Source: Planctomycetales bacterium (lineage in GTDB: Bacteria; 4484-113; JAFGCY01). Taken from it: a DNA stretch of 32,000 nucleotides. The DNA lies in contig CP060262.1 in NCBI GenBank assembly GCA_022646745.1, forward strand, positions 420,001 through 452,000. Direction: 5' to 3'. Positions 9,528 through 29,681 of this stretch are shown here, one piece after another. A program made the position numbers and the translations under genes. The stretch's first letter is position 1, and each line of letters starts with the position of its first letter. A model generated the notes under the pieces. The model saw only the letters and a program-made list of their open reading frames with translations, had not been told where the DNA came from and did no database searches.

Positions 9528-9639
9528 GGATCATCCTCATCATCTATCTGATTCCCGGAATGGCGTTTGCGGCCTCAAGCAGCCTCGACCCACCAACCGG
9601 TTAGCAAAATAGTACGCCAGCAGGAACTGATTCGATACC

Positions 9640-9830
9640 CTGAATCGATTCTGCTTGGTGACACGGTGCGACATGGAATAAATAGTTGTGACCTATGGCA
9701 ATCTGATAAGCATATATTAATAATATGTATTGTTGATTGCCATATATGAATTACTTGAAGGTAATTCATTTATAATATAGAAAACTAACATCAATTATGT
9801 TACAATCCTGCTAACAGGAGGTTTGGCTAT
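9640..9830. promoter_or_regulatory. AT-rich island with nested inverted repeats in the divergent intergenic region
   Basis: A sharp drop in GC. TATGGCAATC (9694-9703) pairs with GATTGCCATA (9735-9744) and encloses the near-palindrome CATATATTAATAATATG. A perfect inverted repeat TGAATTAC (9747-9754) / GTAATTCA (9761-9768) has a 6-nt spacer. Confidence 0.5.
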
Positions 9831-9885
9831 GTAGGACCAGGTTTAGCGAAATCGACCCGGGATGTACCCGGGAGCCGCTGGTACC

Positions 9886-9891
9886 TATAAT
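9886..9891 (+). promoter_or_regulatory. Possible -10 box TATAAT for the nfeD-flotillin operon
   Basis: Perfect TATAAT 73 nt upstream of ATG 9965, with a weak -35 (TGTACC, 17-bp spacer). The predicted leader contains hairpin CCGGAT CAT ATCCGG (9912-9926). Confidence 0.3.
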
Positions 9892-9964
9892 GGAACCGGC
9901 GGAGCAGACAGCCGGATCATATCCGGACTGCATTCGGACTCTCTTTTGACAAGGGGTCAAGGCA

Positions 9965-10732: not shown

Positions 10733-10836
10733 GCACTGCCGCTGGGGACAGTAACAGTCGCAGTGGACTATAATCAGCCTGCACTACCACGTGCAGGAAG
10801 GCGTTGCCCGGAATGCTCCGGGCGAGGAGCGGGGAA

Positions 10837-12474
10837 ATGTTAGCAATGTTGATTCAGGGCTTCGACCTGAACCCGGTGGTGATCGGACTGTGCATCCTGG
10901 CGTTCGTCATAATCATCCTGATAATCTGGGCCAGCCGCTACACCAAGGTACCGCCGAATGCGGTAATGGTGGTGTCGGGTGGCATGGGCCAGCGGCTCAG
11001 GAGTTCCGATGGCAGCAGCGACCGCATCGGCTTCCGCATCATCAAGGGTGGCGGTACATTCGTCGTCCCGGTGCTGGAGCGCGTTGACATCCTCAGCCTC
11101 GAGCTGATGACGATCGACGTGCGAACGCCGGAGGTCTACACCCAGCAGGGTGTGCCGATCCTCGTGGACGGCGTCTCGCAGATCAAGATCCGTTCTGACG
11201 ACGTGAGCATCGCCACCGCGGTGGAGCAGTTCCTGTCAAAGCCCTCCGAGGAGATTGCGAGGATCGCCCAGCAGACGCTGGAAGGCCACCTGCGTGCCAT
11301 CATGGGCACCATGACGGTGGAGGAGATCTACCGCAACCGCGACAGCTTCGCCCAGAAGGTGCAGGAGTTCGCCGCGGCGGACCTCGCCAACATGGGCCTG
11401 CAGATCGTGAGCTTCACGATCCGCGACGTGAAGGACAACGAGGGCTACCTGGACGCACTGGGCAAGACCCGCACCGCCGAGGTCAAGCGTGACGCCGCCA
11501 TCGGTGAGAGCCAGGCGAACCGTGATGCGACGATCAAGGCCGCGGAGTTCCGCCAGCAGGGTGAAACCGCCAAGTTCGCCGCCGAGACGAAGATCGCCTC
11601 TTCGAACCGTGACTACGAGATCGAGGTTGCCAACTACGCCAAGGACGTGAACCGCGAGAAGGCGGAGGCCGACCTGGCCTACGAACTGCAGAAGAACAAG
11701 TCGATGCGCGCCGTCCGTGAGGAGCAGGTGAACGTCGAGATCACCGAGAAGCACAAGCGCATTGAGCTCGAGAACCTCGAGATCGAGCGCAAGCAGAAGG
11801 AGCTCGAGGCCACCGTGCAGCGTCCGGCGGACGCCAAGAAGTACGAGATCGAGCGTGTGGCTGAGGCCGAGCGCTTCCGCCTCGAGAACGTGGCGGAAGG
11901 TGAGAGCCGCTCCAAGCGCCTGACCGGTCTGGCGGATGCCGACGTGGTCAAGGCCCAGGGTGAGGCGGACGGTGAGGCGACCCGTAACCGCGGTCTCGCG
12001 GAAGCTGAGGTGCGCAAGCAGAAGGGTCTGGCGGAAGCCGAGATCGTGCTGAAGACGCAGCTCGCCGAAGCCGAGGGCCTCAAGCAGAAGGGTCTGGCCG
12101 AAGCGCTTGCCGCGCAGGAGAAGGCCAAGGCCTGGCAGGAGTACAACGAGGCGGCCATCGCCCAGCTGCTGATCGAGCGCCTGCCGGAGATCGCGAGTGC
12201 GATCAGCGCCCCGATGAGCAAGATCGAGCGCATCGTGGTGGTCGGCGGCGGGGACGGGTCCCGCGGCACCGGTGCCTCGAAGATCACCCAGGACATCGGC
12301 CAGGTGCTGGCCGAGCTGCCCCCGGTGGTCAAGGCGTTGTCAGGAGTGGACCTGCAGCAGCTGATCGAGCGCTTGCCGGACCTTGCCAGCGGCAAGTACG
12401 GCGGCAACGGCGGCAGCCAGCCGGTCAAGTCCACCAGCAACGGTGACAATGACGGTGGCCCGGTGATTTCCTAG
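10837..12474 (+). CDS. Flotillin / SPFH (band 7) domain protein (545 aa)
   Basis: Track ORF 10804..12474 trimmed to ATG 10837 (GAGGAG about 8 nt upstream). It has an N-terminal TM helix, an SPFH core (VPPNAVMVVSGG...RIIKGGGTFVVPVLERVDILSLELMTIDV) and a long coiled coil with EA repeats (GLAEAEVRKQKGLAEAEIVLKTQLAEAEGLKQKGLAEA). Confidence 0.9.
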   Translation: MLAMLIQGFDLNPVVIGLCILAFVIIILIIWASRYTKVPPNAVMVVSGGMGQRLRSSDGSSDRIGFRIIKGGGTFVVPVLERVDILSLELMTIDVRTPEVYTQQGVPILVDGVSQIKIRSDDVSIATAVEQFLSKPSEEIARIAQQTLEGHLRAIMGTMTVEEIYRNRDSFAQKVQEFAAADLANMGLQIVSFTIRDVKDNEGYLDALGKTRTAEVKRDAAIGESQANRDATIKAAEFRQQGETAKFAAETKIASSNRDYEIEVANYAKDVNREKAEADLAYELQKNKSMRAVREEQVNVEITEKHKRIELENLEIERKQKELEATVQRPADAKKYEIERVAEAERFRLENVAEGESRSKRLTGLADADVVKAQGEADGEATRNRGLAEAEVRKQKGLAEAEIVLKTQLAEAEGLKQKGLAEALAAQEKAKAWQEYNEAAIAQLLIERLPEIASAISAPMSKIERIVVVGGGDGSRGTGASKITQDIGQVLAELPPVVKALSGVDLQQLIERLPDLASGKYGGNGGSQPVKSTSNGDNDGGPVIS

Positions 12475-16553: not shown

Positions 16554-17999
16554 ATGAGTTATCCCTGGTGGCACGTGCCATTCCTGACGGCACCGATGCT
16601 GATCGCCCTGATCGCCACGGTGCATGTGCTGGTGTCGCACTATGCAGTCGGCGGCGGGCTGTTCCTCGCGGTGGAGACAAGCCACGCATACAAGCACAAC
16701 GACGAGGGTTACCTCGCCTACCTCAAGCAGCATGCCTGGTTCTTCGTGCTGCTGACGGTGGTGTTCGGGGCGATCACCGGAGTCGGGATCTGGTGGATCA
16801 TCGGCCTCGCAAGCCCCTTGGCCACCCACTTCCTGATCCAGACATTCGTATTCGGCTGGGCCACGGAATGGGTGTTTTTCGTGATTGAACTCGCGGCTGG
16901 CTTCGCCTTCTATTACTTCTGGGGCAAGCTGGACCGCAGGACGCATGTGGCAATGGGCTGGATCTACGCTGCCGCCGCCTGGATCAGCCTGGTGCTGATT
17001 ACGGGGATCACGGCCTTCATGCTGGACCCCGGCCAGTGGCCCGAAACGCACAACTTCTGGCACGGCTTCTTCAACCCGCAGTTCCTGCCGCAGGTGCTGG
17101 CCCGCACGGGAGCAGCATTCCTGCTGGCATCGATGTATGTCTACTTCCATGCCTCCTTCAAGTGCCAGGACACCGACCTGCTGCGCTACATCGAGAGGCG
17201 CAGCAGCCGCCCGGCGATGCTCGGCAGCGCTCTCGTTGCCAGCGGCGGGCTGTGGTGGTACCTGCTGCTGCCGGCCAGCAGCAAGGCCGCCCTGCAGGGC
17301 GCGGCGGTGATCAACGTGCTGATGGTGATCATGTTCACGCTGACCATCGTGGTATTCGCGCTGCTGTACATCGGCCCCTACCGCAACCCCGGCTGGCTCA
17401 GCCCGGGCTTCGCGATCATGTTCCTCGGCTTCGGGCTGGCGGCAACCGCCACCGGCGAGTACATCCGCGAGGCGGTGCGCAAGCCCTACATCGTCTACAA
17501 CCTGGTGCTTGGCAACCAGGTGCTGGCGGAGAAGGTGCCGCTGCTGCGTGAGAATGGCTTCATCGAGGGCACGCGCTGGCCCTCGGCCTGGCTGGCGGCC
17601 CGGCACCCGCAGCTCGTCACCACGCATCCCGATGGCAGCCTGACGGTTGACGAGCAGGGCATGCTGGCGCTGCCGAAGTATGACCGGGTGGAGATCGGCG
17701 AGGTGCTGTTCATGTACCACTGCAACGACTGCCACGCGGAGCGCAGCGGTGTCAACGCGATGGAGCACCTGCTGACCGGCTGGAGCCGCGAAATGGTGGC
17801 GACCTCCGTGCGGCACCCGGAGAAGCTGAAGTACTTCATGCCGCCCTGGAGCGGCACTGACGCCGAGGCGGAGATCCTGACGGACTACCTGATGGACATG
17901 CGCCCGGAGATGCCGGAGGGCATGTTCTTCGGCGGGCGGCATGACAGCCTGTCCGACGTGCAGGCGATGATTGGCAACACTGTGGAGGAGGCAAGATGA
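16554..17999 (+). CDS. Cytochrome bd-family subunit I (CydA)-like membrane protein fused to a C-terminal mono-heme cytochrome c domain
   Basis: GGAG lies upstream of the ATG. The first ~130 aa (IATVHVLVSHYAVGGGLFLA...FGAITGVGIWWIIGL...FGWATEWVFFVIELAAGFAFYYFWGKL) are colinear with the CydA helices I-III pattern. The C-terminal soluble domain carries CNDCH (a CxxCH heme c site). Confidence 0.55.
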   Translation: MSYPWWHVPFLTAPMLIALIATVHVLVSHYAVGGGLFLAVETSHAYKHNDEGYLAYLKQHAWFFVLLTVVFGAITGVGIWWIIGLASPLATHFLIQTFVFGWATEWVFFVIELAAGFAFYYFWGKLDRRTHVAMGWIYAAAAWISLVLITGITAFMLDPGQWPETHNFWHGFFNPQFLPQVLARTGAAFLLASMYVYFHASFKCQDTDLLRYIERRSSRPAMLGSALVASGGLWWYLLLPASSKAALQGAAVINVLMVIMFTLTIVVFALLYIGPYRNPGWLSPGFAIMFLGFGLAATATGEYIREAVRKPYIVYNLVLGNQVLAEKVPLLRENGFIEGTRWPSAWLAARHPQLVTTHPDGSLTVDEQGMLALPKYDRVEIGEVLFMYHCNDCHAERSGVNAMEHLLTGWSREMVATSVRHPEKLKYFMPPWSGTDAEAEILTDYLMDMRPEMPEGMFFGGRHDSLSDVQAMIGNTVEEAR

Positions 18000-19132
18000 T
18001 GGATCCCAACGGCCTGATTGCCCCTGTCAACGAACTGGGCTACCCCGCCCCGTTCTGGTTCCTGATCTTCTTCCGCGTGCTCGGGTTCACGCTGCACCTG
18101 CTGCCGATGAACCTGTGGTACGCCGGCACGATCACCGCGATGCTGCTCGGCCTGTCCCGCATCCCCGAGGCCCGGCGCTTCAGCGCGCGGCTGATGTCTC
18201 AGATGCCCTTCATCATCGCCTTCGGTGTCAACCTCGGCATCGTGCCGCTGCTGTTCCTGCAGGTGATGGGCTACCGTGTGTTCTACAGCGCCACGATCCT
18301 GATGGCCTGGCAGTGGCTTGCGGTGATCGCGCTCCTGTGCCTGGCCTACTACGGCGTGTACATCTACGCTGTTGGGCTGCGCACGGCGAAGCAGGGCCAG
18401 CTGAAAGCCTGGCAACGCGCCAGCGGCTGGGCCAGTGCGCTGCTGTTCATCCTGATTGCAGTGATCTTCCACAGTGCGATGAGCACGATGGCCGATCCTG
18501 GCAGCTGGCCGGCGATCGCTGAGCAGACCGGCCGGGCCGCCGCCGTGTACGGCACGGCGCACAGCCTGGCGGACCCGCACATGTGGGTGCGCATGCTGTT
18601 CTTCTTCGGCCTGGCGCTGACAACGACCGCGGCATACGTTTCATTTGACGGAGCGATGCTGGCCGGGCATGAAACTGACGACTACCGCAAGTGGACCCGT
18701 GGTTTCGCGCCGCAGCTCTACACGGCAGCGCTTGTTGTCTACGGCATCGGCGGGCTGCTGTACGCCAACAGCTGGGATGCCGGACTGCGGGACTACATGA
18801 CGGCCGGGAGCGCCCTGCCCTTCGCCGCGCTGGCGGCAATCGGCCCGGCGATCCCGCTGGGGCTGCTATGGCTTGGACGCAATGCCGCGAAGGCCGGCCT
18901 GTGGGTGATCATCGCGCAGTTCCTCGTGCTGGGCCTGCATGCGATCGCACGGCAGCTGGCGCAGAACTTCCGCCTGGCACCCTACCTTGACATCGCCGCC
19001 GACCCGGTGAAGATGCAGGTCGGTCCGCTCGTGATGTTCCTTGTGAGCTTCGTGCTGGGACTGGGCGTGCTGGGCTGGATCATCGCAAAGTTGGTGCAGG
19101 CCAACAGGAAGGCAGTAGTGAGTGGGCAGTAG
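17996..19132 (+). CDS. Polytopic membrane partner subunit (378 aa), translationally coupled
   Basis: Its start overlaps the upstream stop (ATGATG; ATG 17996, TGA 17997-17999). It has about 8-9 hydrophobic helices. The last codons and the TAG stop are encoded by CAGTAG-type repeat units. Confidence 0.75.
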   Translation: MMDPNGLIAPVNELGYPAPFWFLIFFRVLGFTLHLLPMNLWYAGTITAMLLGLSRIPEARRFSARLMSQMPFIIAFGVNLGIVPLLFLQVMGYRVFYSATILMAWQWLAVIALLCLAYYGVYIYAVGLRTAKQGQLKAWQRASGWASALLFILIAVIFHSAMSTMADPGSWPAIAEQTGRAAAVYGTAHSLADPHMWVRMLFFFGLALTTTAAYVSFDGAMLAGHETDDYRKWTRGFAPQLYTAALVVYGIGGLLYANSWDAGLRDYMTAGSALPFAALAAIGPAIPLGLLWLGRNAAKAGLWVIIAQFLVLGLHAIARQLAQNFRLAPYLDIAADPVKMQVGPLVMFLVSFVLGLGVLGWIIAKLVQANRKAVVSGQ

Positions 19133-19318: not shown

Positions 19319-19377
19319 TGTGCTAATCTGGAATGACAGCCGAAGCGAGCCGGCGACATACCAGCAGGAGCACAGAC

Positions 19378-19827
19378 ATGTTCAAGGAATTCCGTGAATT
19401 CGCCATGAAAGGCAACGTGATCGACATGGCGATCGGCATCGTGATCGGCGGGGTGTTTACCCCGATCGTGCAGTCCCTGGTCAACGACCTGATCATGCCG
19501 CCGCTCGGCCTGCTGACCGGCGGGATCAGCTTCGCCGACAAGTTCATCCTGCTGAAGCCCGGCGCGGACGGGGCAGCCAGCTATGCCACACTTGCGGCGG
19601 CGCAGGAAGCCGGCGCGGTGACGATCAACTACGGCTCCTTCATCAATGTGATCATCACCTTCCTGCTGGTGGCCTGGGCGGTGTTCATGGTCGTCAAGGT
19701 GATGAACCGCCTCAAGCGCGAGGATGAGGCCCCGGCGGCCGAACCGACCACCAAGTCCTGCCCGCAATGCGCGATGGAGATCCCGATCGCGGCGAAGCGC
19801 TGCGGCCACTGCACGAGCGAGGTGTGA
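19378..19827 (+). CDS. mscL: Large-conductance mechanosensitive channel MscL with a C-terminal four-Cys zinc ribbon
   Basis: Track ORF trimmed to ATG 19378 (AGGAG 7 nt upstream). [44 protein letters not shown] is the canonical MscL N-terminus and TM1. The C-terminus reads [18 protein letters not shown]. Confidence 0.9.
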
Positions 19828-19836
19828 GGAACAGTT

Positions 19837-19868
19837 GTCAGTAGGCAGTGGGCAGTAGGCAGGCAGGC
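19837..19868. repeat. Heptamer array filling the mscL-to-next-gene spacer
   Basis: GTCAGTAGG CAGTGGG CAGTAGG CAGG CAGG C, directly abutting ATG 19869. Confidence 0.7.
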
Positions 19869-20633
19869 ATGAACATCTGGGGACAGCAGGAAAGCACGGA
19901 AGGGATCGACATTCCGGCACCGGACGGGGTCCGGCGCGACGAGTTCCTGTTTCGGCCATCCAACCGCCTGTATCCATCTCCTGACTCCCCGATGGAACCG
20001 CTGCTGCTGCAGTGGGAAATCGATGTTGCCAGGCTGGATGCGATTGCCAATCCAGCGCTGCGCAGCTACGCGGCTGAGCAGCTGCGGATCGTGAGCGCCT
20101 ATGCCATGGCATCGCGCAACAGCGGGCCGCTGCTCGTGGTCGGCCTGCTTGCCCTGCTGGGCCTGCCGCTGCTGCTGAGCCTGGCCTATTCCGGCTACGG
20201 AACGGGGGTGACCGTGGTGGCTGTCATGACAATTGTGCTGATAGTGGCTGGCTTCATCCAGCTGGCCCGGGAGGATGACCTGCTGAAGGTCATCCCGAGC
20301 AATGCCCGGACCCGCCAGCGCTTCGCCGACCGGCTGGTGCACTGCCTGCTTGACAACTCACCATCCGGCCAGCAGCCTGTTGCCCTGCTGTCAGCGCAGC
20401 TGCAGCAGCGGCCGGACAGGAATGTCGTGGCAGCGCTTGAGGCGTTCCGGCTGGCCTGCGTCAGCGACCCGCTGATGTACATCGGCAACCCCGTGCCGCA
20501 GCTCGGCTTCGGCTCACAGTCCGGCAACCATGAGATCGCGCTCAGCCGGCTGGCGGTGCTGCAGTTCCTCAGTGCGTTGACGGTGGAAGGGGAATACCGG
20601 GCCGGGGACGGGAATCCAGCGATGCCTGAATGA
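19869..20633 (+). CDS. Hypothetical two-TM membrane protein, possible distant member of the paralog family (254 aa)
   Basis: Track ORF trimmed to ATG 19869. It has a polar N-tail, a hydrophobic hairpin (GPLLVVGLLALLGLPLLLSLAY / GVTVVAVMTIVLIVAGFIQL) and a soluble tail whose RQRFADRLVHCLLDNSP weakly recalls the NLLDRGLL block. Confidence 0.6.
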   Translation: MNIWGQQESTEGIDIPAPDGVRRDEFLFRPSNRLYPSPDSPMEPLLLQWEIDVARLDAIANPALRSYAAEQLRIVSAYAMASRNSGPLLVVGLLALLGLPLLLSLAYSGYGTGVTVVAVMTIVLIVAGFIQLAREDDLLKVIPSNARTRQRFADRLVHCLLDNSPSGQQPVALLSAQLQQRPDRNVVAALEAFRLACVSDPLMYIGNPVPQLGFGSQSGNHEIALSRLAVLQFLSALTVEGEYRAGDGNPAMPE

Positions 20634-20825: not shown

Positions 20826-21476
20826 TCAGTTCATCCGTCCGAGCTTCTTCAGGTGGCGGCGGTAGTCGCTGCGCAGTTCGTAGAGGATGCGCTCCACCTC
20901 CTGCACAATGCCGTCCGGCCACTGCTGCCCGCTGATCCCGGCGTAGTCGTACTCGCTGCCCAGTTCCTGCACCACGATGCGCGTGGCATCCCAGTCGGCG
21001 GCATGCCCGAGGAAGCTGCGCAGGTAGTCCGGGAAGCGCTCCTCAGCGATCAGGTGCCGCTTGGAACGCAGCAGCAGGTTGATCAGGCGGTTGATGCGCG
21101 AGAAGTAGTCGCGGTCGAAGCGCGCCGCGATGCGTTCGATGCGGGCCTCGATCTCGTGCGGGTCATCGCCCCTGGCAGCGCCCTCCGCACGGATGCGCTG
21201 GGTGATTGCGCGCAGGATTTCGTAGTAGGTGTTGGTTTCGTGGAGGTAGCCCACAAGCGGGCCGTAGAGCTGGCTGATCTGCTCCTGCAGGAAGCGCACC
21301 CGGGAGTCATGGCGGGCGGCGTTGTGGTCACTGCGGTTGGACAGCCAGGTCCGAAGCAGCAGTGCGGTGAGGTAGAAGATACCGCCGGCGGCGGCACCGA
21401 TGATGGCGGACTGTAGTTCAACACTGATTACGAAGGCAGGCTCCAGCCCCGGGTTGGGGAGCAGGAAGTATAGCAA
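20826..21476 (-). CDS. Hypothetical single-TM protein (about 216 aa, start uncertain)
   Basis: The track ORF 20826..21641 would read through the G-rich repeat and overlap the divergent gene. I trimmed it to in-frame TTG 21476. There is no in-frame ATG and no SD. It has one TM helix (AIIGAAAGGIFYLTALLL) and then a helical soluble domain. No family recognised. Confidence 0.5.
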   Translation of the reverse strand: MLYFLLPNPGLEPAFVISVELQSAIIGAAAGGIFYLTALLLRTWLSNRSDHNAARHDSRVRFLQEQISQLYGPLVGYLHETNTYYEILRAITQRIRAEGAARGDDPHEIEARIERIAARFDRDYFSRINRLINLLLRSKRHLIAEERFPDYLRSFLGHAADWDATRIVVQELGSEYDYAGISGQQWPDGIVQEVERILYELRSDYRRHLKKLGRMN

Positions 21477-21478
21477 AG

Positions 21479-21551
21479 GAGGGATGCGGGATGCGGGATG
21501 GGGTATGCGGAAGTGGTTGGAGTTTGGAGTGGGGAGGTTGGAGTGGGGAGC
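21479..21551. repeat. G-rich tandem repeats in the divergent promoter region
   Basis: GGGATGC GGGATGC GGGATGG GGTATGC followed by GGAGTTTGGAGTGGGGAGGTTGGAGTGGGGAG. Positions 21481-21503 fit G3+N1-7 x4. Confidence 0.8.
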
Positions 21552-21600
21552 AGATAGCCTGCACAAACAGGCAAGCTGATTTGTTGTCTTGAGGAATAAT

Positions 21601-22311
21601 GTGTTTGTGAATGAACCTGCAAACCTAGCCGGGACAGGCACTGGAATTCAAGGAGAAGCACGTACGAAAGCAGTACGTTATCTGAAAGGCGTCATCAGGT
21701 ATTCCCGCTTTGGCCTGGTTTGCAATCGCTATGTATTGCCACTTCTGTGCCTGCCCCTGCTGTTTTCTCCCCTCTACAACTTTGGCACCCTCGGATGGCT
21801 GTCCATTTTCAACTCAGCATTGGCAATCTACATGCTGCTTGTGCTGATCCTTCCCGAATTCAGACGAAACATTGTTCCGGCAACTGAACTGGCTGAAATC
21901 CGGCGGCTGGCGCGGGTCAACCTGCTGGACCATGGACTGCTGCTGAAGGCTATGGCGGCGGACTGTGCCTACGACATGCATGCACCGGGATCGATCTTCA
22001 ATCCCGCTGGCCAGCAAGTCCCTGAGCGCTACCGCCTGCGTAATATCCAGGCGCGGATGCGTGCCCTGATGGACCACTACGCCATGGCCTGTGAAAGCCA
22101 CGGCTGGCCATGGAAGGCCGGGCAGGATGATAGTGAGCAGATGCGGGAGAACATGAACGTCGAAGGCATGGAGCTGAAGACCCTGTCCGACCTCGGTTCG
22201 GTCATGGCAATGGGCAAGTACCTGGCTTCTTCAATGCATGTCAAGTCGCCGGAGCGCCTGGCAATCCTCGAATCCCTGCTGGCAGTGCTGGAGGAACAGG
22301 AGGATGGATGA
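21601..22311 (+). CDS. Paralog-family member P1 (two-TM hairpin plus conserved soluble module)
   Basis: Track ORF 21589..22311. GTG 21601 lies 5 nt after GAGGA; TTG 21589 and GTG 21607 are alternative starts. Motifs: ARVNLLDHGLLLKAM, RMRALMDHYAMACESHGWPW, LESLLAVLEEQ. Confidence 0.75.
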   Translation: MFVNEPANLAGTGTGIQGEARTKAVRYLKGVIRYSRFGLVCNRYVLPLLCLPLLFSPLYNFGTLGWLSIFNSALAIYMLLVLILPEFRRNIVPATELAEIRRLARVNLLDHGLLLKAMAADCAYDMHAPGSIFNPAGQQVPERYRLRNIQARMRALMDHYAMACESHGWPWKAGQDDSEQMRENMNVEGMELKTLSDLGSVMAMGKYLASSMHVKSPERLAILESLLAVLEEQEDG

Positions 22312-22987
22312 CAGTCCGGGGACCATCCGCAGTGGCAACCTGCGGACATATGTGCAGCTGCAGGGGGAATACCGCGGCTGTGAGCATATGGAGCGCATCG
22401 GTCGCCAGCTCGGCCTGCGGCAGGCATACTGGCAACTGCGGCGCATCGGGATGGCGATGCTGTTCTGCCTGCCGGCGGGCTGGATGTTGCTTGCGGGGCT
22501 GGCCAGCGGCAACCTCGTGTACTGCCTCGGCGGGATCGGCATCCTCTATTACTACTATTTCCGGGTGCACCTTGACAGCGCCGGCATGGCCCGCGTGGAG
22601 TACTTCATGCAGAATGCGCGGCATTACCTGCTGGACAAGGGCCTGCTCGTCGAACTGCTGCAGGCTGACAAGCCGGAGTGGCTGCTGGAGCAGGACCGCA
22701 GCCTCGAGCTGGCCCGGCTGAAGGCGAAGGAGCGGCCGTCATTTACGGATACGATCCAGCGGCTGGAGTTCCTCGTGGAGCATTACGCCCTGATCTGTGA
22801 CGAGCGCGGCTGGCAGTGGCGCGAGCGGGTGCAGAAGTCCGCCGGGCGCCTGAAGGCCGGTGAGGAGCGCAAACGTGAACCAGGCCTGCTGCCCTGGGAG
22901 CGGCAGGCGCTGGTCGGGGTGCTGATAGACATCCTGGAGGACCGGCCCCGCGGACAAGCCGGGCCAAACCTGCCCGGGCTGCAATGA
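22304..22987 (+). CDS. Paralog-family member P2
   Basis: ATG 22304 overlaps the P1 stop (ATGGATGA), with AGGAGG just upstream. Motifs: ARHYLLDKGLLVELL, RLEFLVEHYALICDERGWQW, VLIDILEDR. Confidence 0.8.
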   Translation: MDDSPGTIRSGNLRTYVQLQGEYRGCEHMERIGRQLGLRQAYWQLRRIGMAMLFCLPAGWMLLAGLASGNLVYCLGGIGILYYYYFRVHLDSAGMARVEYFMQNARHYLLDKGLLVELLQADKPEWLLEQDRSLELARLKAKERPSFTDTIQRLEFLVEHYALICDERGWQWRERVQKSAGRLKAGEERKREPGLLPWERQALVGVLIDILEDRPRGQAGPNLPGLQ

Positions 22988-23029
22988 CGGATGATGCCGG
23001 GCGGGCGAGCAGGCATTGGTTGATTTCGC

Positions 23030-23035
23030 TATGAT
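23030..23035 (+). promoter_or_regulatory. -10-like TATGAT, 6 nt upstream of ATG 23042 (possible internal leaderless promoter)
   Basis: The sequence reads GCTATGAT GTAGGG ATG, in the 54-nt gap between P2 and P3. Confidence 0.3.
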
Positions 23036-23041
23036 GTAGGG

Positions 23042-23677
23042 ATGGACAGGCCGGCCACAGGGAGCGGGACGACTGGCAGGGTAATATCAGCGGACAGCGC
23101 GCTGCTGACTGAACTGCGTCTGATGCGGCGCGGGATGGACCTTGGCGACCGGCTGGCGCTCAACATCTTCAAGGCGATCGTGCTGGCGGTGCTGGCCAGC
23201 GTGCTGTACTGGCTCAACCCGGTCCTGATATGGTTCGTGATCCCGCCGGCGGTGCTGGTGTTCACCGCTGACAACCCATCCCGGCCGCGCAACGGGCAGC
23301 TTGGCGGATTCCGCCGGCTGGCGAACGAGAACCTGCTGGGGCATGGCCTGCTGGCGGAGGTGATGTCCGCCGGCAGCGTGCATGAGCTGCTCGGCCAGGA
23401 ACCTGACAACCACGGCCATATCCGCGCGCTGCTGCCGAAGCGCTTCCGCGACGGGCGCGAGCGGATCGACTTCCTGCTGGAGAGTTATGCCGTGCTGTGC
23501 GAGTCCCGCGGCTGGCCGGCCTTCGCCGACCCGCTCAGCCCGCTGCAGCCCGGAGAGCACGGCGCGGACGGGCTGGCGCTGGATGCGCAGCACCGCCGTG
23601 AACTGCTGGACCTGCTGATCGAGCTGCTGGAGGGTGGCGTTGACAATGCGCCGCTGCGGAGTGCACTTGATGAGTGA
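23042..23677 (+). CDS. Paralog-family member P3
   Basis: Motifs: ANENLLGHGLLAEVM, RIDFLLESYAVLCESRGWPA, LLIELLEGG. Two-TM hairpin IFKAIVLAVLASVLYWL / VLIWFVIPPAVLVFTA. Confidence 0.8.
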   Translation: MDRPATGSGTTGRVISADSALLTELRLMRRGMDLGDRLALNIFKAIVLAVLASVLYWLNPVLIWFVIPPAVLVFTADNPSRPRNGQLGGFRRLANENLLGHGLLAEVMSAGSVHELLGQEPDNHGHIRALLPKRFRDGRERIDFLLESYAVLCESRGWPAFADPLSPLQPGEHGADGLALDAQHRRELLDLLIELLEGGVDNAPLRSALDE

Positions 23678-24356
23678 AATGCAGCGGCCACGGCAGCAGT
23701 CGCAATCCGCCAGGCTGGGCAGTGATGAGCTGCTGGCAGCGCCGGTGAACGAGAAGCTGAAGCGGCAGATCGCCGGCCTGCTGCGGCAGGCCCGCCAGCG
23801 CTATGATGCGCACAGGCAGTTCGAACTGGCGATCGCCACCCTGCTGGTGCTGGCGACGACGGGCGGGCTGGGTGCAATGTACTGGCCGATGTTCGCCACA
23901 GTGCCGCTTGGGCTGTGGGCCGTGCACGCCACCTGGAAGCACATGAACAATGATGCCGCCGAGCGCAAGCGCATGAAGTTCTGCGCCTTCCGCAACCTGC
24001 TGGACCGCGGCCTGCTGGTGGAACTGATTGACAGCCGGGAACCGCAGGAGCTGCTCCCCACACCGGCGGTGCTGCGCCTGCTGACAACCAGCCTGGAGAG
24101 GAAGTCCTCCTTTTCCAGCATGGAACACCGACTCAGTTTCCTTGTCGACAGGTACGTGCAGATCTGCCAGCACAGGCGCTGGCCGGTCAGTGGCGACGGC
24201 TGGCAGGATTCACTCAACATCATGGGCCAGGTACTTTCCACTTCAAGCAAGGAAGACCTGCGCTCGATGCGGCTGCGCATCTGCCTGCTGGAAACGCTTG
24301 CGGTGATCTTCGGCGCGCAGGTCAATGTGGACAACATCGGGGACCCGGATGACTGA
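23670..24356 (+). CDS. Paralog-family member P4
   Basis: ATG 23670 overlaps the P3 stop (ATGAGTGA). Motifs: AFRNLLDRGLLVELI, RLSFLVDRYVQICQHRRWPV. Confidence 0.8.
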   Translation: MSEMQRPRQQSQSARLGSDELLAAPVNEKLKRQIAGLLRQARQRYDAHRQFELAIATLLVLATTGGLGAMYWPMFATVPLGLWAVHATWKHMNNDAAERKRMKFCAFRNLLDRGLLVELIDSREPQELLPTPAVLRLLTTSLERKSSFSSMEHRLSFLVDRYVQICQHRRWPVSGDGWQDSLNIMGQVLSTSSKEDLRSMRLRICLLETLAVIFGAQVNVDNIGDPDD

Positions 24357-25068
24357 CAATCCGCTGCCGGAATGGGATGAGAGGCCGTACTATGGAAAGT
24401 CATTTCCTGCAGGAAGCAACGGCAACTCAGCCATCCTTAATCACTTGAGATCCTCACTGGACAGGAATAAAGCATCCTACAGGACTGAAAACAGCTGTGG
24501 CAACATCCTTGCATTCGGCATAGCAATAATCATAGCTATTAAACTGGCAACCGAGTTGCATCCCGCCATCCTGATCATAGTTCCGGTGTTTGCGTTTGCA
24601 GCAATCTACTCCATCAGGAACCCCGGATTCGACGAAAAGGACAGGAGCAAGATCCGTGAGAATGCAATCAGGAACCTGCTGGGACGAGGGCTGCTCGCTG
24701 AAATGCTCAATGCAGAGAAGGCCTCACAGGTACTGCCTGATCGATCTCGAATTGATGATCCTGAACTGAGGATCCTCACGCTGCCGGAATTCCACGACAC
24801 TCACTTCAAGTCAGCGCTCGACAGGATAGACTTCCTTGTCCTGAACTACGAATACATTTGTCACTCACGGAAGTGGGCCTACCAGCAATCAAACTGGAAG
24901 TACGACCCGCTGCCTGGCACTTCCCATTTCAGTAAAGGCCGCCATAAGCTTCATATCGGCGGGGGAAACTCCGTTGCACGGCAGATCGTGATCCAGGCCC
25001 TGATCGACATCCTCGAGGGGCGAGTTGATGGAACGGGTGATAATGGTGGCGTGGAGAAGATGCAGTGA
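24349..25068 (+). CDS. Paralog-family member P5 (lower GC)
   Basis: ATG 24349 overlaps the P4 stop (ATGACTGA). Motifs: AIRNLLGRGLLAEML, RIDFLVLNYEYICHSRKWAY, ALIDILEGR. Confidence 0.8.
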   Translation: MTDNPLPEWDERPYYGKSFPAGSNGNSAILNHLRSSLDRNKASYRTENSCGNILAFGIAIIIAIKLATELHPAILIIVPVFAFAAIYSIRNPGFDEKDRSKIRENAIRNLLGRGLLAEMLNAEKASQVLPDRSRIDDPELRILTLPEFHDTHFKSALDRIDFLVLNYEYICHSRKWAYQQSNWKYDPLPGTSHFSKGRHKLHIGGGNSVARQIVIQALIDILEGRVDGTGDNGGVEKMQ

Positions 25069-25718
25069 GCAAGGACAGGGAGCAGATCGGGCAAGGCGAT
25101 GGCGGCAGCCATGCAGTGCTGTCTGCTGAACGTGCGCAGCTGCTGGCGGATCTTGACAGCATGGCGGCCGGCGGGGTCAGCAATGTGACCTTCAAGGTGC
25201 TGATCCTTTCAGTGCTGCTTTCCATCTTCTGGTTTTCCTATCTATGGGCCAGGACAGGTCCTGATCGCTGGATGGATTTAATGAGGCAGGGATGGCCGGC
25301 GATCGTGTTTGCGGTGTTTGTCGGCGTGGTTGTGGCGCTCGTCAGGATGGGCCGGCGGGATTCAGCGCCTGACCCCAACAGGCTGATGCGCGAGCAGGCG
25401 ATTGGCAACCTGCGGGACCGCGGGCTGCTGCGGGATGTGCTGGCTGCCAGTGACAGCCACAGCCTGCTGCCGCCTGAGGGCGAAACCCGTCAGACTCCAA
25501 ATCGCCGCCTGACAACGGAGCTGTCGCGCATCGAGTTCCTCGCGGACAACTACTTCGAAATCAGCGAGCAGCGCGGGCTGGCGGTGCATGGGGCTCTGCC
25601 GGCACGGGACAAGCTGCTGATCGACGAACTGCGGCGGGGCTCGCGCTCCGAGTTCTCCCGGGTGCGCAAGATGCTGTTCGGACTGGTGGCGGACGAACTG
25701 CGCAGCGGCCGCTACTGA
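25065..25718 (+). CDS. Paralog-family member P6
   Basis: GTG 25065 overlaps the P5 stop (GTGA). Motifs: AIGNLRDRGLLRDVL, RIEFLADNYFEISEQRG. The C-terminus is ...ELRSGRY. Confidence 0.75.
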   Translation: MSKDREQIGQGDGGSHAVLSAERAQLLADLDSMAAGGVSNVTFKVLILSVLLSIFWFSYLWARTGPDRWMDLMRQGWPAIVFAVFVGVVVALVRMGRRDSAPDPNRLMREQAIGNLRDRGLLRDVLAASDSHSLLPPEGETRQTPNRRLTTELSRIEFLADNYFEISEQRGLAVHGALPARDKLLIDELRRGSRSEFSRVRKMLFGLVADELRSGRY

Positions 25719-25748
25719 GGCCGGCAGTCCTGCTATGCTTGAGCTGCA

Positions 25749-26480
25749 ATGACGGACAGCGGCAAGGACCGGCAGGAGTACAGCCAGCGGCTGAAGCCCC
25801 TGTCCGCGGAGGAATACGCGCAGCGGAAAGATGGAGAACAGCGGCCGACATACCTCAGCCAACCTGGCGTCGACAGGAAGCCGGATCGGACAACCTATAC
25901 GTTTAACCAGGAACTGCGTGACCGGGCCGCCGGACGCAACAAGGGAGCTGACTGGATATGGTTATTGCTGGCTTTGTTGCTTATGGGTATCGAGATTGCC
26001 CGACAGGACCCCGCAGAGCGCTTCAACTTCAGGTTCCTGCTCAATCCGGTCAGCATCCTTGCTATTATCGTCGTTGTCATTCTGGCGATTGTCACCCACT
26101 TGGTGGAAAAGAGCCAGACAAATCCGAACGAAGACCCGATGTCAGCTTTTGAGCACCGTGCCCATTTCAACCTTGTTGATCGCGGACTGTTGCGGCGGAC
26201 CATGGAAGCGAAGGACAGCTATGAAATCCTGCCGCTGCGTCCGGGGATACTGAACATGGAACTGCATGGCCGTCCGGACTTCAGCCTGGCTGATGCAAGG
26301 GTTCGTTTCCTGATTGCCAATTATCCGGAGATATGCGAAAGACATGGTTACAGCTGGGGCCTGAAAGGGATGCAATACCACAACAAGCATCAGTTATATG
26401 GCAAGGAAAACCGCGACAACCCCTACAATCGCCGGTTGTGCGGCATCATTGACGAGCTGCTGTCCAGCGGCCGGTACTGA
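25749..26480 (+). CDS. Paralog-family member P7 (lower GC)
   Basis: ATG 25749 lies 9 nt after TATGCT. Motifs: AHFNLVDRGLLRRTM, RVRFLIANYPEICERHGYSW. The C-terminus ...ELLSSGRY resembles that of P6. Confidence 0.8.
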   Translation: MTDSGKDRQEYSQRLKPLSAEEYAQRKDGEQRPTYLSQPGVDRKPDRTTYTFNQELRDRAAGRNKGADWIWLLLALLLMGIEIARQDPAERFNFRFLLNPVSILAIIVVVILAIVTHLVEKSQTNPNEDPMSAFEHRAHFNLVDRGLLRRTMEAKDSYEILPLRPGILNMELHGRPDFSLADARVRFLIANYPEICERHGYSWGLKGMQYHNKHQLYGKENRDNPYNRRLCGIIDELLSSGRY

Positions 26481-26508
26481 CAGGCGTAAGCTGATAAGCT
26501 TTAAAGCA

Positions 26509-26955
26509 ATGACGGACAGGCAGGGCAGCACGAGCAGGGCAGATAGCCGCAAGGCTGTCCCGGCCTATCGCCAGCGCTTGCAGGAGATCGTATCCACTGA
26601 GGATGAAGCCGTGCAGGCACCGGTAGCCAGCAAGGGCATCCACCCCGAGGGCCTGCCGCCGGAGCATATCCGCCGGAATCACAGGCCAAGGCAGTGGCGA
26701 GATCCACGGCTCAGCGAGGAGATCCGGCTGGCACCACGCCGGCCCGGCTGGCAGCAGATGCTCGCAACATTTGGAATCATCGTGGCGGCGTTTGCGATCC
26801 TCATCGCGCTGGACCCACCAGCAAGCATTGTCGACGGCAGCCCGTATGAGAAGTTCAACGAATACATCGCACTTGGGATCATGTGCCTGCTGGTCTGGGT
26901 GCGCTGGCTGTTTCACTCACAGACCCGGCGGGATGACAGGCCACCGCCGGACTAG
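26509..26955 (+). CDS. Truncated family member P8 (N-tail and two-TM hairpin only, 148 aa)
   Basis: Track ORF 26398..26955 trimmed to ATG 26509, which lies 8 nt after TAAGCT. The start context GCAATGACGGACAG is identical to that of P7. Its N-tail YRQRLQEI recalls YSQRLKPL in P7. It lacks the conserved soluble module and could be a decaying copy. Confidence 0.55.
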   Translation: MTDRQGSTSRADSRKAVPAYRQRLQEIVSTEDEAVQAPVASKGIHPEGLPPEHIRRNHRPRQWRDPRLSEEIRLAPRRPGWQQMLATFGIIVAAFAILIALDPPASIVDGSPYEKFNEYIALGIMCLLVWVRWLFHSQTRRDDRPPPD

Positions 26956-27011
26956 TCGCGAGCTGGGGAACACCTCAGCCGCTCAAGGCGTCTGATGGGC
27001 AGAGGGGAAAC

Positions 27012-27620
27012 ATGGACAAACATCTAGTTGAGGAGGCCGGGCAGGCCGGGCAGGAATACCAGCCCAGCAGCTTCATGCCGCGCGACCTGTCGCATACGAT
27101 CATCACCGCCATCGTCATCCTCGCGGCACTGGCAGCAGTGGAGGTGAAGTGGCGCTTCCTGAGCGGCGGAATGATCGACTACTCATTGTGGCCGGATGAC
27201 TTCCTCGCCGCCTGCGGGGAGCTCAGTCGGGTGCGGATGAGCAGCGGGCGCAGTGCGCTGGCCACCTCCGCCAGCATCGCCGGGCTCGGGATGCTCGCGC
27301 TGATGGGCTGCGAGTACTACTGGGACCAGTTGCGCAAGGCCTGGCATGGCAGTGCGCTGCCGGGCTACCTGCCCGCCGGGCAGTCCTACCTGCTGGAACC
27401 GCTGGACAACAGCTTCCGGCTGGCGATGGCCGTGCTGGCCGGTGTGCTCGTCGCCGTCGACTGCATCGCACTGGCCGGCTGGGCCCCGCTGCAGCCGCTG
27501 CAGCCCCTGGCGCTGACCCGCTTCGTTGCCATCTGGCTGCTGCTGCTGCGGATCTGGCTGCCGGGGGAACTGAGGAGCGCGCTGGACTCGCAGCCCTCGC
27601 GCACTGCTAACATGGAATGA
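27012..27620 (+). CDS. Hypothetical polytopic membrane protein (202 aa)
   Basis: GAGGGG lies upstream of the ATG. It has about four hydrophobic segments and is translationally coupled to the next gene (ATGA). It lacks the family motifs. Confidence 0.6.
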   Translation: MDKHLVEEAGQAGQEYQPSSFMPRDLSHTIITAIVILAALAAVEVKWRFLSGGMIDYSLWPDDFLAACGELSRVRMSSGRSALATSASIAGLGMLALMGCEYYWDQLRKAWHGSALPGYLPAGQSYLLEPLDNSFRLAMAVLAGVLVAVDCIALAGWAPLQPLQPLALTRFVAIWLLLLRIWLPGELRSALDSQPSRTANME

Positions 27621-28258
27621 TGGACATCGCCGCCCGGCAGATCCTGCAACGCATGGAGCAGCTGCTGCACCAGTCGCAGCGCAACATGCGGCTGTACTTC
27701 GCGATCGGCGGCGGGCTGCTGGCAACCGGCCTGTTCAACGGCCTGCCGATTGAGATGTACATGATCTCCACCCTGGCGCAGATGCTGATCTTCCTGCTCG
27801 GATCGATCATCGGGATGGCCTGCGGCAGCAAGCTGCAGAAATCCGTGCTGCCGGTTGCCATCGAACATGTGCGCAGCCTGCTGATCGACGCGATGCTGAT
27901 GGCGCAGCTGATTGACAGCCCGGCCCATGAGCTGCCCGGCAACAGCCGTGGCCTGCTGAACAGCGGCGGGTCAAAGGAGAACACCAGCATGGGCGGGCGG
28001 CTGGACTGGATCGTCAACAACTGGTCTGTGCTGGCGCACCGGATGGGCTACCACCCCTTGCCGCAGCTGATGCAGCGCCTGCACCTGCTGTACCTTGCGC
28101 TGATCGTGCTGGTGCCGCTGTCCGCCGTGCTGCTGCACAGCGTCAGCCTGCTGCTCGTACTGGGCAGTGTGTACGTGCTCGGCCTGTCGCTGGACAGCCT
28201 GGAGTGCGATGCGGTGCGCACGGTGCTGCTGGACTCCCTGCTGGCCGATGAGGAATGA
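27617..28258 (+). CDS. Paralog subfamily B member B1 (family core plus two extra C-terminal TM helices)
   Basis: ATGA overlap with the upstream gene. FAIGGGLLATGLFNGL / LAQMLIFLLGSIIGMACG hairpin. VRSLLIDAMLMAQLIDSPAHELP corresponds to the NLLDRGLL block. RLDWIVNNWSVLAHRMGY corresponds to the RIDFLVxNY..IC..RGW block. Then LHLLYLALIVLVPLSAVLL / LLLVLGSVYVLGL. Confidence 0.75.
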   Translation: MMDIAARQILQRMEQLLHQSQRNMRLYFAIGGGLLATGLFNGLPIEMYMISTLAQMLIFLLGSIIGMACGSKLQKSVLPVAIEHVRSLLIDAMLMAQLIDSPAHELPGNSRGLLNSGGSKENTSMGGRLDWIVNNWSVLAHRMGYHPLPQLMQRLHLLYLALIVLVPLSAVLLHSVSLLLVLGSVYVLGLSLDSLECDAVRTVLLDSLLADEE

Positions 28259-28955
28259 TCCGTACAGCATGGATGCACCTGTCGGCAGTGAGGTGCTGCA
28301 GGCACTAGCGCGGGAGGAACAGGGCCAGCGCTTCGCACTGGCACTTGGGCTGGTCGGCAACACGATTATGGCAACGCTGGCGATCGCCATCTGCCTGCTG
28401 GTCAGCCAGCAGACCCTGTTCCTTGTGCTGGCAATCGGCCTCGCCCGTTACACCGCGATGGCTGCAGGCGCCGGGCTGCTCACCGGCCTGCTGTTCTGGC
28501 TGCTGCTGGTGCAGCATATCCTGCCCGCAATGCAGCGCGCTGTGGCCCTCAGCATCCGCTATTCCGAAGCGCTGCCACAGCTGCTGGAGCACCCCGCGCC
28601 GTGGGAGCTGCTGCCACGCCAGCCCCTGCCGCTGGCCTACCGGGGCAGCAAGCCGGGCCAGGAAGGTCTGGCGCAGCGACTTAACTTCATCGCCTGGCGC
28701 TGGAATGCGCTGCTGGCCGCACTGGGCTACCGTTTCCGGCCATCGGTGCCCGGGTGGGCTGCACCACTGGTGGTCGGCGTACTGCTGTGCGCCGCGATCT
28801 ACCTGCTGAGCGCAAACCTGCAGTTCGGCCTCGGCATCGGACTGGCCCCGCTGGCCGGCTTGTCGCTCACAGCAGGCCAGGCCCGGCATGTGGCAGCGCT
28901 CAGAGCGTTGCGGAACTTCTTCATTGAACAGGCGGGCAATGCCGACCTGTCGTAA
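28248..28955 (+). CDS. Paralog subfamily B member B2
   Basis: Track ORF 28167..28955 trimmed to ATG 28248 (11-nt overlap, ATGAGGAATGA). ATG 28269 is an alternative start. RLNFIAWRWNALLAALGY matches the second family block, and two further TM helices follow. Confidence 0.7.
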   Translation: MRNDPYSMDAPVGSEVLQALAREEQGQRFALALGLVGNTIMATLAIAICLLVSQQTLFLVLAIGLARYTAMAAGAGLLTGLLFWLLLVQHILPAMQRAVALSIRYSEALPQLLEHPAPWELLPRQPLPLAYRGSKPGQEGLAQRLNFIAWRWNALLAALGYRFRPSVPGWAAPLVVGVLLCAAIYLLSANLQFGLGIGLAPLAGLSLTAGQARHVAALRALRNFFIEQAGNADLS

Positions 28956-28964
28956 ACTCGTAGC

Positions 28965-29681
28965 ATGAAGCGCAACTCCTCCAAGCTGATCGACGGCCTC
29001 AGTGGCCGCATCAGCTCGACCCAGCGCTACATCCACATCTGCAATTCAGTGGGCGGCGGCCTGCTGCTCGTGGGCATCATCCACGGGCTGGACGCACTGG
29101 ACCCGGCCGGCCCGCGCCAGCGCAGCCTGGAGCTGCAGCTGTTCTACTTCTTGTTCGGTGCCGTACTCGGGCTGGGCTGCGGGGCAGTGCTTGACTGGCT
29201 GCTGCAGTCCGGCATGCGGCGCCATGCCCGCCGCCACCTGCTTGACAACCTGCTGCTGCCGCAGCTGTTTGACAGCCAGGTGCGGGAGGAAAGCGAGGAG
29301 GAACAGGGCAGCGGAGACCTCAACCTGCCGCTCGGCAAGCGGCGGCATGCCCTGCTCACGCGGCTGGAACGGATCGCCGCCAACTGGGACATGATCTGCG
29401 CCGAACTGGGGCAGCCCTCGATGCCGCTGGCACTGCGCCTGCTGTGGTACCTGAGCTTCCCGCTGGCGGTGGCGGTCCCGGTGACGGCATTTCTCACGGG
29501 CCAGATCCTGCTGATGTTCGCACTCGGCGGCTTCATCGCCCTCTGGATGGTGCTGGCAGCCAGCCGTGGCAATGCGGTCAGGCATGAACTGCTCGGCATC
29601 CTGCAGAGCATCGGCAATGGAAAAATGTACAGCGCGAAACCCCCGGAAGTGATCGCGCGTCTGCATACTGGCAGGCAGTGA
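28965..29681 (+). CDS. Paralog subfamily B member B3
   Basis: CNSVGGGLLLVGIIHGL parallels FAIGGGLLATGLFNGL in B1. It also has ARRHLLDNLLLPQLFDS and RLERIAANWDMICAELG, then two extra TM helices. Confidence 0.75.
   Translation: MKRNSSKLIDGLSGRISSTQRYIHICNSVGGGLLLVGIIHGLDALDPAGPRQRSLELQLFYFLFGAVLGLGCGAVLDWLLQSGMRRHARRHLLDNLLLPQLFDSQVREESEEEQGSGDLNLPLGKRRHALLTRLERIAANWDMICAELGQPSMPLALRLLWYLSFPLAVAVPVTAFLTGQILLMFALGGFIALWMVLAASRGNAVRHELLGILQSIGNGKMYSAKPPEVIARLHTGRQ

Follow-up and report, generated by a model that had tools for sequence, protein, structure and literature searches.

IdsE of Proteus mirabilis is an inner-membrane self-identity protein in which two transmembrane (TM) helices are followed by a C-terminal domain, and its partner is IdsD (PMC4471559). 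The strain-variable region of IdsE overlaps a TM domain and sets allele-restricted binding of IdsD, probably via an intramembrane interface, while the C-terminal domain is predicted to comprise six beta-strands and two helices (PMC4471559). Here we describe an array of twelve consecutive genes for small membrane proteins, P1 to P12, at positions 21589-29681 of a 32,000-nucleotide stretch from a Planctomycetales bacterium (NCBI GenBank assembly GCA_022646745.1, contig CP060262.1, positions 420,001 to 452,000 of the forward strand; hereafter the window), for which IdsE would be, by analogy, the best documented counterpart. Like IdsE, the two-TM members of this array, termed type A, combine a TM hairpin with a C-terminal domain, and patches of variation between strains fall on hairpins (in P1, P6 and P8), with the cytoplasmic module being conserved. 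Unlike IdsE, which is encoded by a single gene in an ids operon linked to a type VI secretion system (T6SS) and situated beside the polymorphic IdsD, the array has 2-7 tandem type A paralogs together with four-TM relatives (type B), and no T6SS or IdsD-like gene was found in the loci examined. The array module is also predicted to be all-helical, and the likeness to IdsE is one of description, with no library match linking the two.

Tandem immunity arrays are likewise listed among the polymorphic toxin systems (PMC3482391). Our array resembles these in consisting of tandem, fast-diversifying, strain-variable paralogs that undergo recombinational replacement, but departs from them in its fixed slot among housekeeping genes, its conserved gene order, its slowly evolving homologous four-TM partner and the lack of any match at threshold to an Imm family. 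Immunity genes usually lie beside their toxin or in mobile islands, whereas no toxin, secretion or mobility gene accompanies the array in seven loci. The immunity proteins of pore-forming bacteriocins, such as the colicins, are small multi-TM proteins of the cytoplasmic membrane with their specificity located in the membrane. Another point of comparison is provided by the chlamydial Inc proteins, which are defined by a bilobed hydrophobic domain in which a short loop links two TM helices and the two termini face the same side; these are lineage-restricted, have no homologs outside their lineage and are often encoded in tandem clusters. A comparable bilobed domain is present in the array proteins (loops of 5-19 residues; a helix-turn-helix at residues 11-75 of P3 in an AlphaFold2 (AF2) model), and Planctomycetales, the NCBI label of the source metagenome-assembled genome (MAG), belong to the same superphylum as Chlamydiae, a placement that is by label only. 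However, Inc proteins are secreted by a type III system into the host vacuole by obligate intracellular bacteria and have no shared conserved C-terminal module, whereas the array proteins do share one, show no sequence or fold similarity to Incs, and come from a large genome (longest contig 4.1 Mb) of possible sludge habitat, making a type III-borne, intracellular role unlikely. Finally, CURT1/CurT, Mic10 and reticulon-type proteins possess a TM hairpin of minimal loop, an adjacent helical segment and glycine zippers promoting oligomerisation. The array shows a similar minimal-loop hairpin with a neighboring helix and a GxxxGxxxG motif in TM2 of type B; yet no homology was detected, the array proteins carry a three-block cytoplasmic module that those proteins lack, and membrane-shaping hairpin proteins are neither hypervariable between strains nor organized as recombining tandem arrays. 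The array lacks the linkage or the homology by which each of these systems is defined, its likeness to IdsE and the immunity arrays being one of evolutionary behavior, and that to the Incs and membrane-shaping proteins one of hairpin architecture.

An earlier note on this DNA, made from the sequence alone, had described twelve paralogous two-TM proteins in an operon-like array. Ten of the twelve are indeed homologous, but three of those are four-TM proteins, and the remaining two are unrelated to them. The array thus comprises seven type A genes, P1-P7 (21601..22311, 22304..22987, 23042..23677, 23670..24356, 24349..25068, 25065..25718 and 25749..26480), two genes for unrelated membrane proteins, P8 (26509..26955) and P9 (27012..27620), and three type B genes, P10-P12 (27617..28258, 28248..28955 and 28965..29681). 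All these open reading frames (ORFs) are present on the plus strand, as the note had reported, with the start of P1 being ambiguous between a TTG at 21589, a GTG at 21601 and a shorter NCBI call giving 191 residues. The close spacing is also as described: at six of the eleven junctions the neighboring ORFs overlap by 4, 8 or 11 nucleotides (8 nucleotides each for P2 over the P1 stop and for P4 over the P3 stop), and at the other five they are separated by 9-56 nucleotides. The overlapping stop and start codons and the lack of a terminator-like site on the plus strand between 19000 and 31000 uphold an operon-like array that is probably translationally coupled. Within it there is no interleaved enzyme, transposase or toxin gene in the window; neither Rfam families nor tRNAs were found, and the DNA repeats inside the array are the conserved coding blocks only.

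The type A proteins share an N-terminal tail, a TM hairpin, block 1 (A-x2-N-L-x3-G-L-L), block 2 (R-x3-L-x3-Y-x2-[IL]-C) and a block 3 helix. Their proposed paralogy was borne out by a shuffle test named beforehand, with all 21 pairs giving Smith-Waterman Z scores of 4.8-25 against 100 shuffles, and all seven proteins match a hidden Markov model (HMM) of the module with E values of 1e-38 to 1e-53 (6e-47 for P1). Every motif string quoted in the note was located, in P2-P5, and the invariant columns of the P1-P7 alignment are confined to blocks 1-3; the N-terminal tails are hypervariable, again as had been claimed. The invariant residues are A, L, G, L, L, R, L and Y only, a set that does not suggest catalysis. 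Among the type B proteins, P10 and P12 are related (Z 31), whereas P11 is divergent (Z 5-8 against P10 and P12), though it matches a type B HMM with E 5e-92. The tie of P10-P12 to P1-P7 was seen by profile-profile comparison only: hhalign gave a probability of 93.8 % (E 1.8e-7) over a match spanning blocks 1, 2 and 3 for alignments of 27 type A and 12 type B sequences, an earlier, shallower comparison having given 88.6 %. In type B the order of elements is hairpin, blocks 1 and 2, a second TM hairpin and block 3, such that the second hairpin occupies the position of the variable linker between blocks 2 and 3 of type A. P8 consists of a polar N-terminal tail of 84 residues and a TM hairpin without the module, whereas P9 has about four TM helices. 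Against type A and type B, both gave Z < 2, except for P8 with P11 (Z 5.1), and hhalign probabilities below 1 %. We accordingly rejected P8 and P9 as remote family members, along with an upstream two-TM protein, U1 (19848-20633), for which the probability was also below 1 %.

The two-TM hairpin proposed for type A is backed both by hydropathy and by the AF2 model of P3, although the second helix of P2 and P4 was unresolved at the simple hydropathy threshold used. Hairpin loops measure 5-19 residues with 0-3 lysines or arginines (5-11 residues and none in P1, P3 and P5; 18-19 residues and three in P6 and P7), and both tails are rich in these residues. By the positive-inside rule this implies that type A proteins have both termini inside and that the module is cytoplasmic. 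The model of P3, from the 27-sequence alignment, is all-helical (mean predicted local distance difference test, pLDDT, 77.8; predicted template-modeling score, pTM, 0.67), with the N-terminal tail continuous with TM1 in a single helix (11-58), followed by a tight turn, a second helix (60-75) and the helices of block 1 (84-100), block 2 (138-155) and block 3 (182-197). P10, modeled from the 12-sequence alignment (pLDDT 75.5, pTM 0.65), has four long helices and a short central module, and its TM2 bears a glycine-zipper-like GxxxGxxxG motif with invariant G62 and G66 in type B. Because the second hairpin returns the type B chain to the membrane after block 2, we infer that the module is apposed to the inner leaflet, with block 2 ending and block 3 beginning at the membrane surface.

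A profile check found no confident match of either type to any characterized family, sequence or fold, in keeping with the note's description of the family as unrecognized. Neither the single proteins nor the 27 aligned members reached the threshold for any family in Pfam, NCBIfam, PADLOC or PHROGs. The best sub-threshold matches were to DUF805 (16.7 bits against a cut-off of 25.7), Holin-X (14.3 against 28.4) and MRS2-like (13.1 against 27), each in at most two of the 27 members, the first two falling on the hydrophobic hairpin region and the third in the cytoplasmic module. A sub-threshold match to Imm17 (E 0.061, one of the 27) was judged not meaningful. Sequence-profile searches of the PDB gave E values of at least 1 for type A and at least 0.046 for type B (an unrelated POU domain), and the best E values from Foldseek were 3.1 (PDB) and 0.62 (BFVD) for type A and 1.8 (PDB) for type B, with structural TM-scores of at most 0.36. 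As judged by sequence and predicted fold, then, the array represents a new protein family and locus type, with the caveat that lineage-restricted membrane ORFans are common.

The distribution of the family is very narrow. Searched exhaustively with HMMER, a set of 1.84 billion representative proteins gave 25 matches at E <= 0.001, corresponding to 24 genuine clusters; the remaining one, a repeat protein of 1836 residues (P0021), is spurious, with its 'NGNLVDSGLTP' repeats imitating block 1. Word-indexed searches of 5.8 billion proteins yielded about a dozen clusters per query among the matches listed. When scanned with a narrow alignment, two of 185,579 GTDB species representatives carried the family, namely MAG AC1.30 and 'UBP7 HKST-UBA03', and a scan of JGI metagenomes added one more short contig, whereas tblastn searches of phage and plasmid collections found no copy. 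All traced matches lie in a few MAGs or contigs whose records are labeled 'Planctomycetales bacterium', 'bacterium', 'UBP7' or '4484_113'. These labels suggest that the carriers constitute one uncultured lineage, and literature searches under the lineage names found no biology of these organisms. Saline activated sludge is a possible source of the MAGs, as indicated by the isolate label 'UBP7 HKST-UBA03' and the match of 'UBP7' to one report (PMC8495973).

Comparable arrays are present in at least six other genomes or contigs, so that the absence from related genomes that the note had named as a refutation does not apply. They include a sister strain with about 95 % DNA identity to the window (L006) and MAG AC1.30 (L004). 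In every contig long enough to show the flanks, the array sits between the gene for MscL and a pair encoding an epimerase and RlmN, and in the six long loci the order is conserved: two to seven type A genes, then P8 and/or P9, then one to three type B genes. The window and L006 have seven type A genes, P8, P9 and three type B genes; L010 has seven type A genes, P8 and two type B genes; and L004 has five type A genes, P8 and one type B gene. L011 and L013 have just two type A genes, P9, a minus-strand gene for a PQQ-like propeller, and orthologs of P10 and P12. At least four type A genes are present in L014, and type A, P9 and P10 in L015. Two type A genes with P9, P10 and P12 would therefore appear to make up the minimal set. 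In this type A pair the '...LIDILEGR' class and the '...LRSG[RN]Y' class have one member each, and P6 and P7, with their '...LRSGRY' ends, belong to the latter class. P10, the most conserved member of the array, has orthologs in every locus that extends to its position. Orthologs of P9 are 92 % identical in L006 and 39-41 % in L011 and L013, and those of P12 93 % and 33-35 %, respectively; P11 has orthologs in L006 (95 %) and L010 (54 %) only; and those of P8 (49-55 %) occur in L006, L010 and L004 and are absent from L011 and L013. The PQQ-like beta-propeller gene (608-609 residues), on the opposite strand, splits the array between P9 and P10 in both its loci, which are the two most distant ones (L011 12054-13883; L013 12195-14021).

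Members of the array differ sharply in their rate of change. Between L011 and L013 the flanking MscL, epimerase and RlmN are 90 %, 93 % and 95 % identical and the stable members P9, P10 and P12 are 82 %, 80 % and 88 % identical, as against 29 % and 33 % for the two type A genes. Between L010 and L004 the flanks are 95-99 % identical, P3, P4 and P10 are 98 %, 92 % and 99 % identical, P8 is 78 % and slot 5 is 53 %, while the other type A genes are not shared. P4 of the window is 93 % identical to its ortholog in L006 and 53-55 % to those in L010 and L004. In these sequence comparisons type B and P9 evolve moderately, and type A is hypervariable.

The closest pair of strains reveals how this variation is distributed. 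The DNA of the window and L006 is about 95 % identical outside sharp patches where identity falls to the background level. The first patch (21481..21867), a gap in the blastn alignment with an identity per 100 nucleotides of 0.44-0.54 against 0.97 adjacent to it, covers the divergent-promoter region and the N-terminal tail and TM hairpin of P1, with its 3' breakpoint just before block 1. Consequently, P1 is 74 % identical to its L006 ortholog overall, with the tail and hairpin replaced and the module about 97-98 % identical at the DNA level. The second (24398..24985), also a blastn gap (0.31-0.47 against 0.84-0.94 in the flanking windows), covers the body of P5, the most variable slot, and has breakpoints just past the P4/P5 junction and at block 3; P5 is only 38 % identical to the slot-5 protein of L006, compared with 93-96 % for its neighbors. 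Two further patches, with approximate limits, affect the TM-hairpin region of P6 (25200..25400; 0.46-0.65 against 0.82-0.92 flanking) and the TM hairpin and C-terminus of P8 with the P8-P9 spacer (26800..27000; 0.48-0.53). The L006 slot-5 allele is 62 % identical to that of the more distant AC1.30 as against 38 % to that of the window, and the P6 module is 91-92 % identical to that of AC1.30, with other orthologs at 39-75 %; allele relationships are thus incongruent with strain relatedness. The synonymous divergence (dS) from L006 is 0.41-1.70 in the mosaic genes, P5 being the highest, and 0.09-0.21 in the others, and GC content at third codon positions (GC3) is 0.61 in P5, 0.65 in P1 and 0.69 in P7 as against 0.77-0.91 in the rest of the array. 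Taken together, the sharp patches, the raised dS, the low GC3 of P5 and P1 and the incongruent slot-5 allele point to homologous recombination, anchored at conserved blocks and junctions, as the route by which old and divergent alleles were brought in, rather than to hypermutation in situ.

Several aberrant sequences were also observed. The P6 ortholog of AC1.30 (L004 11949-12602) is apparently truncated, being a 148-residue ORF without TM1 that follows a 55-residue ORF; this may be a frameshift or a pseudogene, and it is located in the hairpin region. Three proteins from short metagenome contigs (P0006, P0007 and P0016) start as P4, P1 or P2 and run into unrelated sequence some 100-170 residues further on. 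They may be chimeras joined at the repeated blocks during assembly, or else genuine variants in the population that arose by recombination or frameshift.

The reading of these observations that we favor, at a probability of roughly 0.4, is that the array encodes a membrane assembly peculiar to this lineage, in which a stable core is combined with exchangeable type A subunits and the latter determine its specificity. The ancestral unit would have been a TM hairpin with both termini inside, joined to a membrane-apposed cytoplasmic helical module with the three blocks. A slowly evolving core, made up of the type B proteins P10 and P12 (with or without P11) along with P9 and/or P8, would be co-expressed with two to seven type A subunits, which could dock onto the core or onto other type A subunits via the common module; such co-assembly is possible because both types have the same cytoplasmic module. 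The N-terminal tails and TM hairpins of type A would be strain-specific, and homologous recombination with its breakpoints at the conserved blocks and the gene junctions would swap them from strain to strain. The variable hairpins would then be intramembrane specificity determinants that either recognize or evade a polymorphic partner inserted in the membrane, for instance a toxin, a phage protein or a kin-identity protein. Such determinants have counterparts in IdsE and, as a second analogue, in the immunity proteins of pore-forming bacteriocins. On this reading the two proposals of the earlier note, a heteromeric assembly and a receptor or immunity-type array, may both be partly true. 

Several points weigh against such an assembly. 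The chromosomal position of the array is stable and lies among housekeeping genes, and no toxin, secretion-system (including T6SS and contact-dependent inhibition, CDI), phage, partner or mobile-element gene was found in the window or in the 10-kb flanks of L004, L006, L010, L011 and L013. The loops of P2-P5 are so short that they expose hardly anything to the periplasm. The comparative evidence comes from about seven strains of one rare lineage, and the AF2 models are monomers from shallow alignments (27 and 12 sequences). What these data show is homology, architecture, gene order, contrasting rates, mosaic replacement and purifying selection, and the physical assembly, the specificity role and the polymorphic partner are inferred from them. 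Moreover, fast-evolving membrane ORFans restricted to one lineage are widespread and may turn over neutrally.

One competing explanation, that the ORFs are artefacts of high-GC DNA or decaying duplicates, draws on the frequency of long antisense ORFs in a window of 64 % GC, the truncated AC1.30 ortholog and the chimeric or frameshifted metagenomic proteins. It is nevertheless effectively excluded by the signs of coding constraint: in comparison with L006 the ratio of nonsynonymous to synonymous divergence (dN/dS) is 0.14-0.50 in all twelve genes (for example, 0.16 in P2 and 0.14 in P7, both of which are 96 % identical to their orthologs), GC3 exceeds GC content at second positions (GC2) in the plus-strand frames of the array, and the orthologs keep their reading frame even where identity of the flanking proteins between genomes is as low as 71-92 %. 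The conserved motifs and the confident AF2 folds also speak against it. For these reasons, all twelve ORFs are real genes under purifying selection. These same ratios below 0.5 also bear on the possibility of a housekeeping complex that scaffolds or curves the membrane, in which redundant type A copies drift under relaxed constraint and no conflict is involved, as they indicate that variable copies are maintained instead of decaying. Such a complex would be in keeping with the stable slot among conserved MscL, flotillin, cytochrome bd-like and RlmN genes, the minimal five-gene set kept in distant genomes, the lack of catalytic-looking invariant residues, and the minimal-loop hairpins following a helical N-terminal segment continuous with TM1, which are a feature of membrane-shaping hairpin proteins in general. 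However, the variation is sharp-edged rather than diffuse, with raised dS and shifted GC3 inside DNA that is about 95 % identical, the phylogeny of the alleles conflicts with strain relatedness, and the synteny with flotillin and MscL is uninformative because it spans the whole region within the lineage. On balance we regard this explanation as improbable.

A further alternative is an orphan immunity or exclusion array, in which each type A protein on its own neutralizes one membrane-acting toxin or blocks one phage, with type B, P8 and P9 being mere neighbors or having another role. Type A copy number varies from two to seven between genomes, alleles are replaced in a cassette-like manner with raised dS and low GC3 in the replaced genes, their relationships do not follow those of the strains, and they evolve far faster than the flanks. 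This account too is unlikely: toxin, T6SS/CDI and mobile genes are absent near every locus examined, there is no PADLOC or PHROG match and no phage or plasmid copy, and the homology of type A and type B together with the constant co-linear order argue for a functional link that it leaves aside. The assembly with exchangeable type A subunits may also be given a more specific and distinctly speculative form, in which it acts as a hitherto undescribed intramembrane 'barcode'. Here the constant core of type B and P9 would display a strain-specific set of TM hairpins, encounters with polymorphic agents that insert into the membrane (kin-recognition proteins, pore-forming toxins, or phage injection or lysis proteins) would be settled by the helix-helix specificity of these hairpins, and new specificities would arise by cassette-style recombination at the conserved blocks.

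As to the surroundings of the array, a divergent minus-strand gene (20826..21476, in an ORF that extends to 21641) encodes a protein with one TM helix and a helical domain of no known family, its 216-residue form being deduced from its orthologs. These adjoin the array in L006, L010, L004 and L013 (71-88 % identity), with none found in L011; L014 has a 177-residue minus-strand gene at this position, a positional match only. The intergenic region shared by this gene and the array (about 21477-21600) falls within the first mosaic patch. Whether the gene belongs to the system is uncertain. MscL (19333-19827, plus strand), the upstream landmark of the array in all the long loci, has a zinc-ribbon-like extension at its C-terminus (UPF0547, E 1.3e-5), and its sequences from these loci share 80-96 % identity. 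The MscL gene is followed by the plus-strand gene for U1, a protein of 261 residues with a central TM hairpin and no family (hhalign probability against type A 0.6 %). U1 is duplicated in L006 (3937-4725 and 4718-5515, the paralog being 27 % identical), and is absent from L010 and from L004, where an acetyltransferase gene is found instead; a second slot of variability thus lies a short distance upstream of the array. Further upstream on the plus strand, a cytochrome bd subunit I-like protein (16554-17999; Cyt_bd_oxida_I, E 9e-13) is fused to a C-terminal c-type cytochrome domain (Cytochrome_CBB3, E 1e-5), and its gene is overlapped by that of a 378-residue partner without a Pfam match (17996-19132); the pair is kept in L004, L006 and L010. 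We did not adopt a functional link of the array to the MscL, flotillin or cytochrome bd-like genes, since the synteny is region-wide in the lineage, and MscL and the array have a minus-strand gene between them. Other large ORFs without a Pfam match are those at 3058-4617 (plus, 519 residues), 4676-6289 (plus, 537 residues), 6300-9527 (minus, 1075 residues) and 9965-10732 (plus, 255 residues); the last two have L013 orthologs of 44 % and 71 % identity, and the adjacent flotillin (10804-12474) one of 92 %. Blocks of 1 kb with low GC content occur at 1001-2000 (0.535), 9001-10000 (0.538) and 24001-25000 (0.55, the P5 block) in a window averaging about 0.64.

The very narrow distribution of the family, with 24 clusters among 1.84 billion proteins, two GTDB species representatives and one metagenome contig, is a limit, and there is no organism for genetics. 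Even so, a conservative reading still yields a new family with two architectures, of two and four TM helices, and a confident predicted fold without structural neighbors, and the difference between a stable core and recombining paralogs provides a clear comparative signature that is directly testable. If the hairpins are indeed specificity determinants, the array would represent a new kind of self/non-self or defense determinant inside the cytoplasmic membrane, built on an undescribed fold in a candidate phylum without a cultured member, and the modular exchange of transmembrane hairpins would be the evolutionary mechanism behind it.

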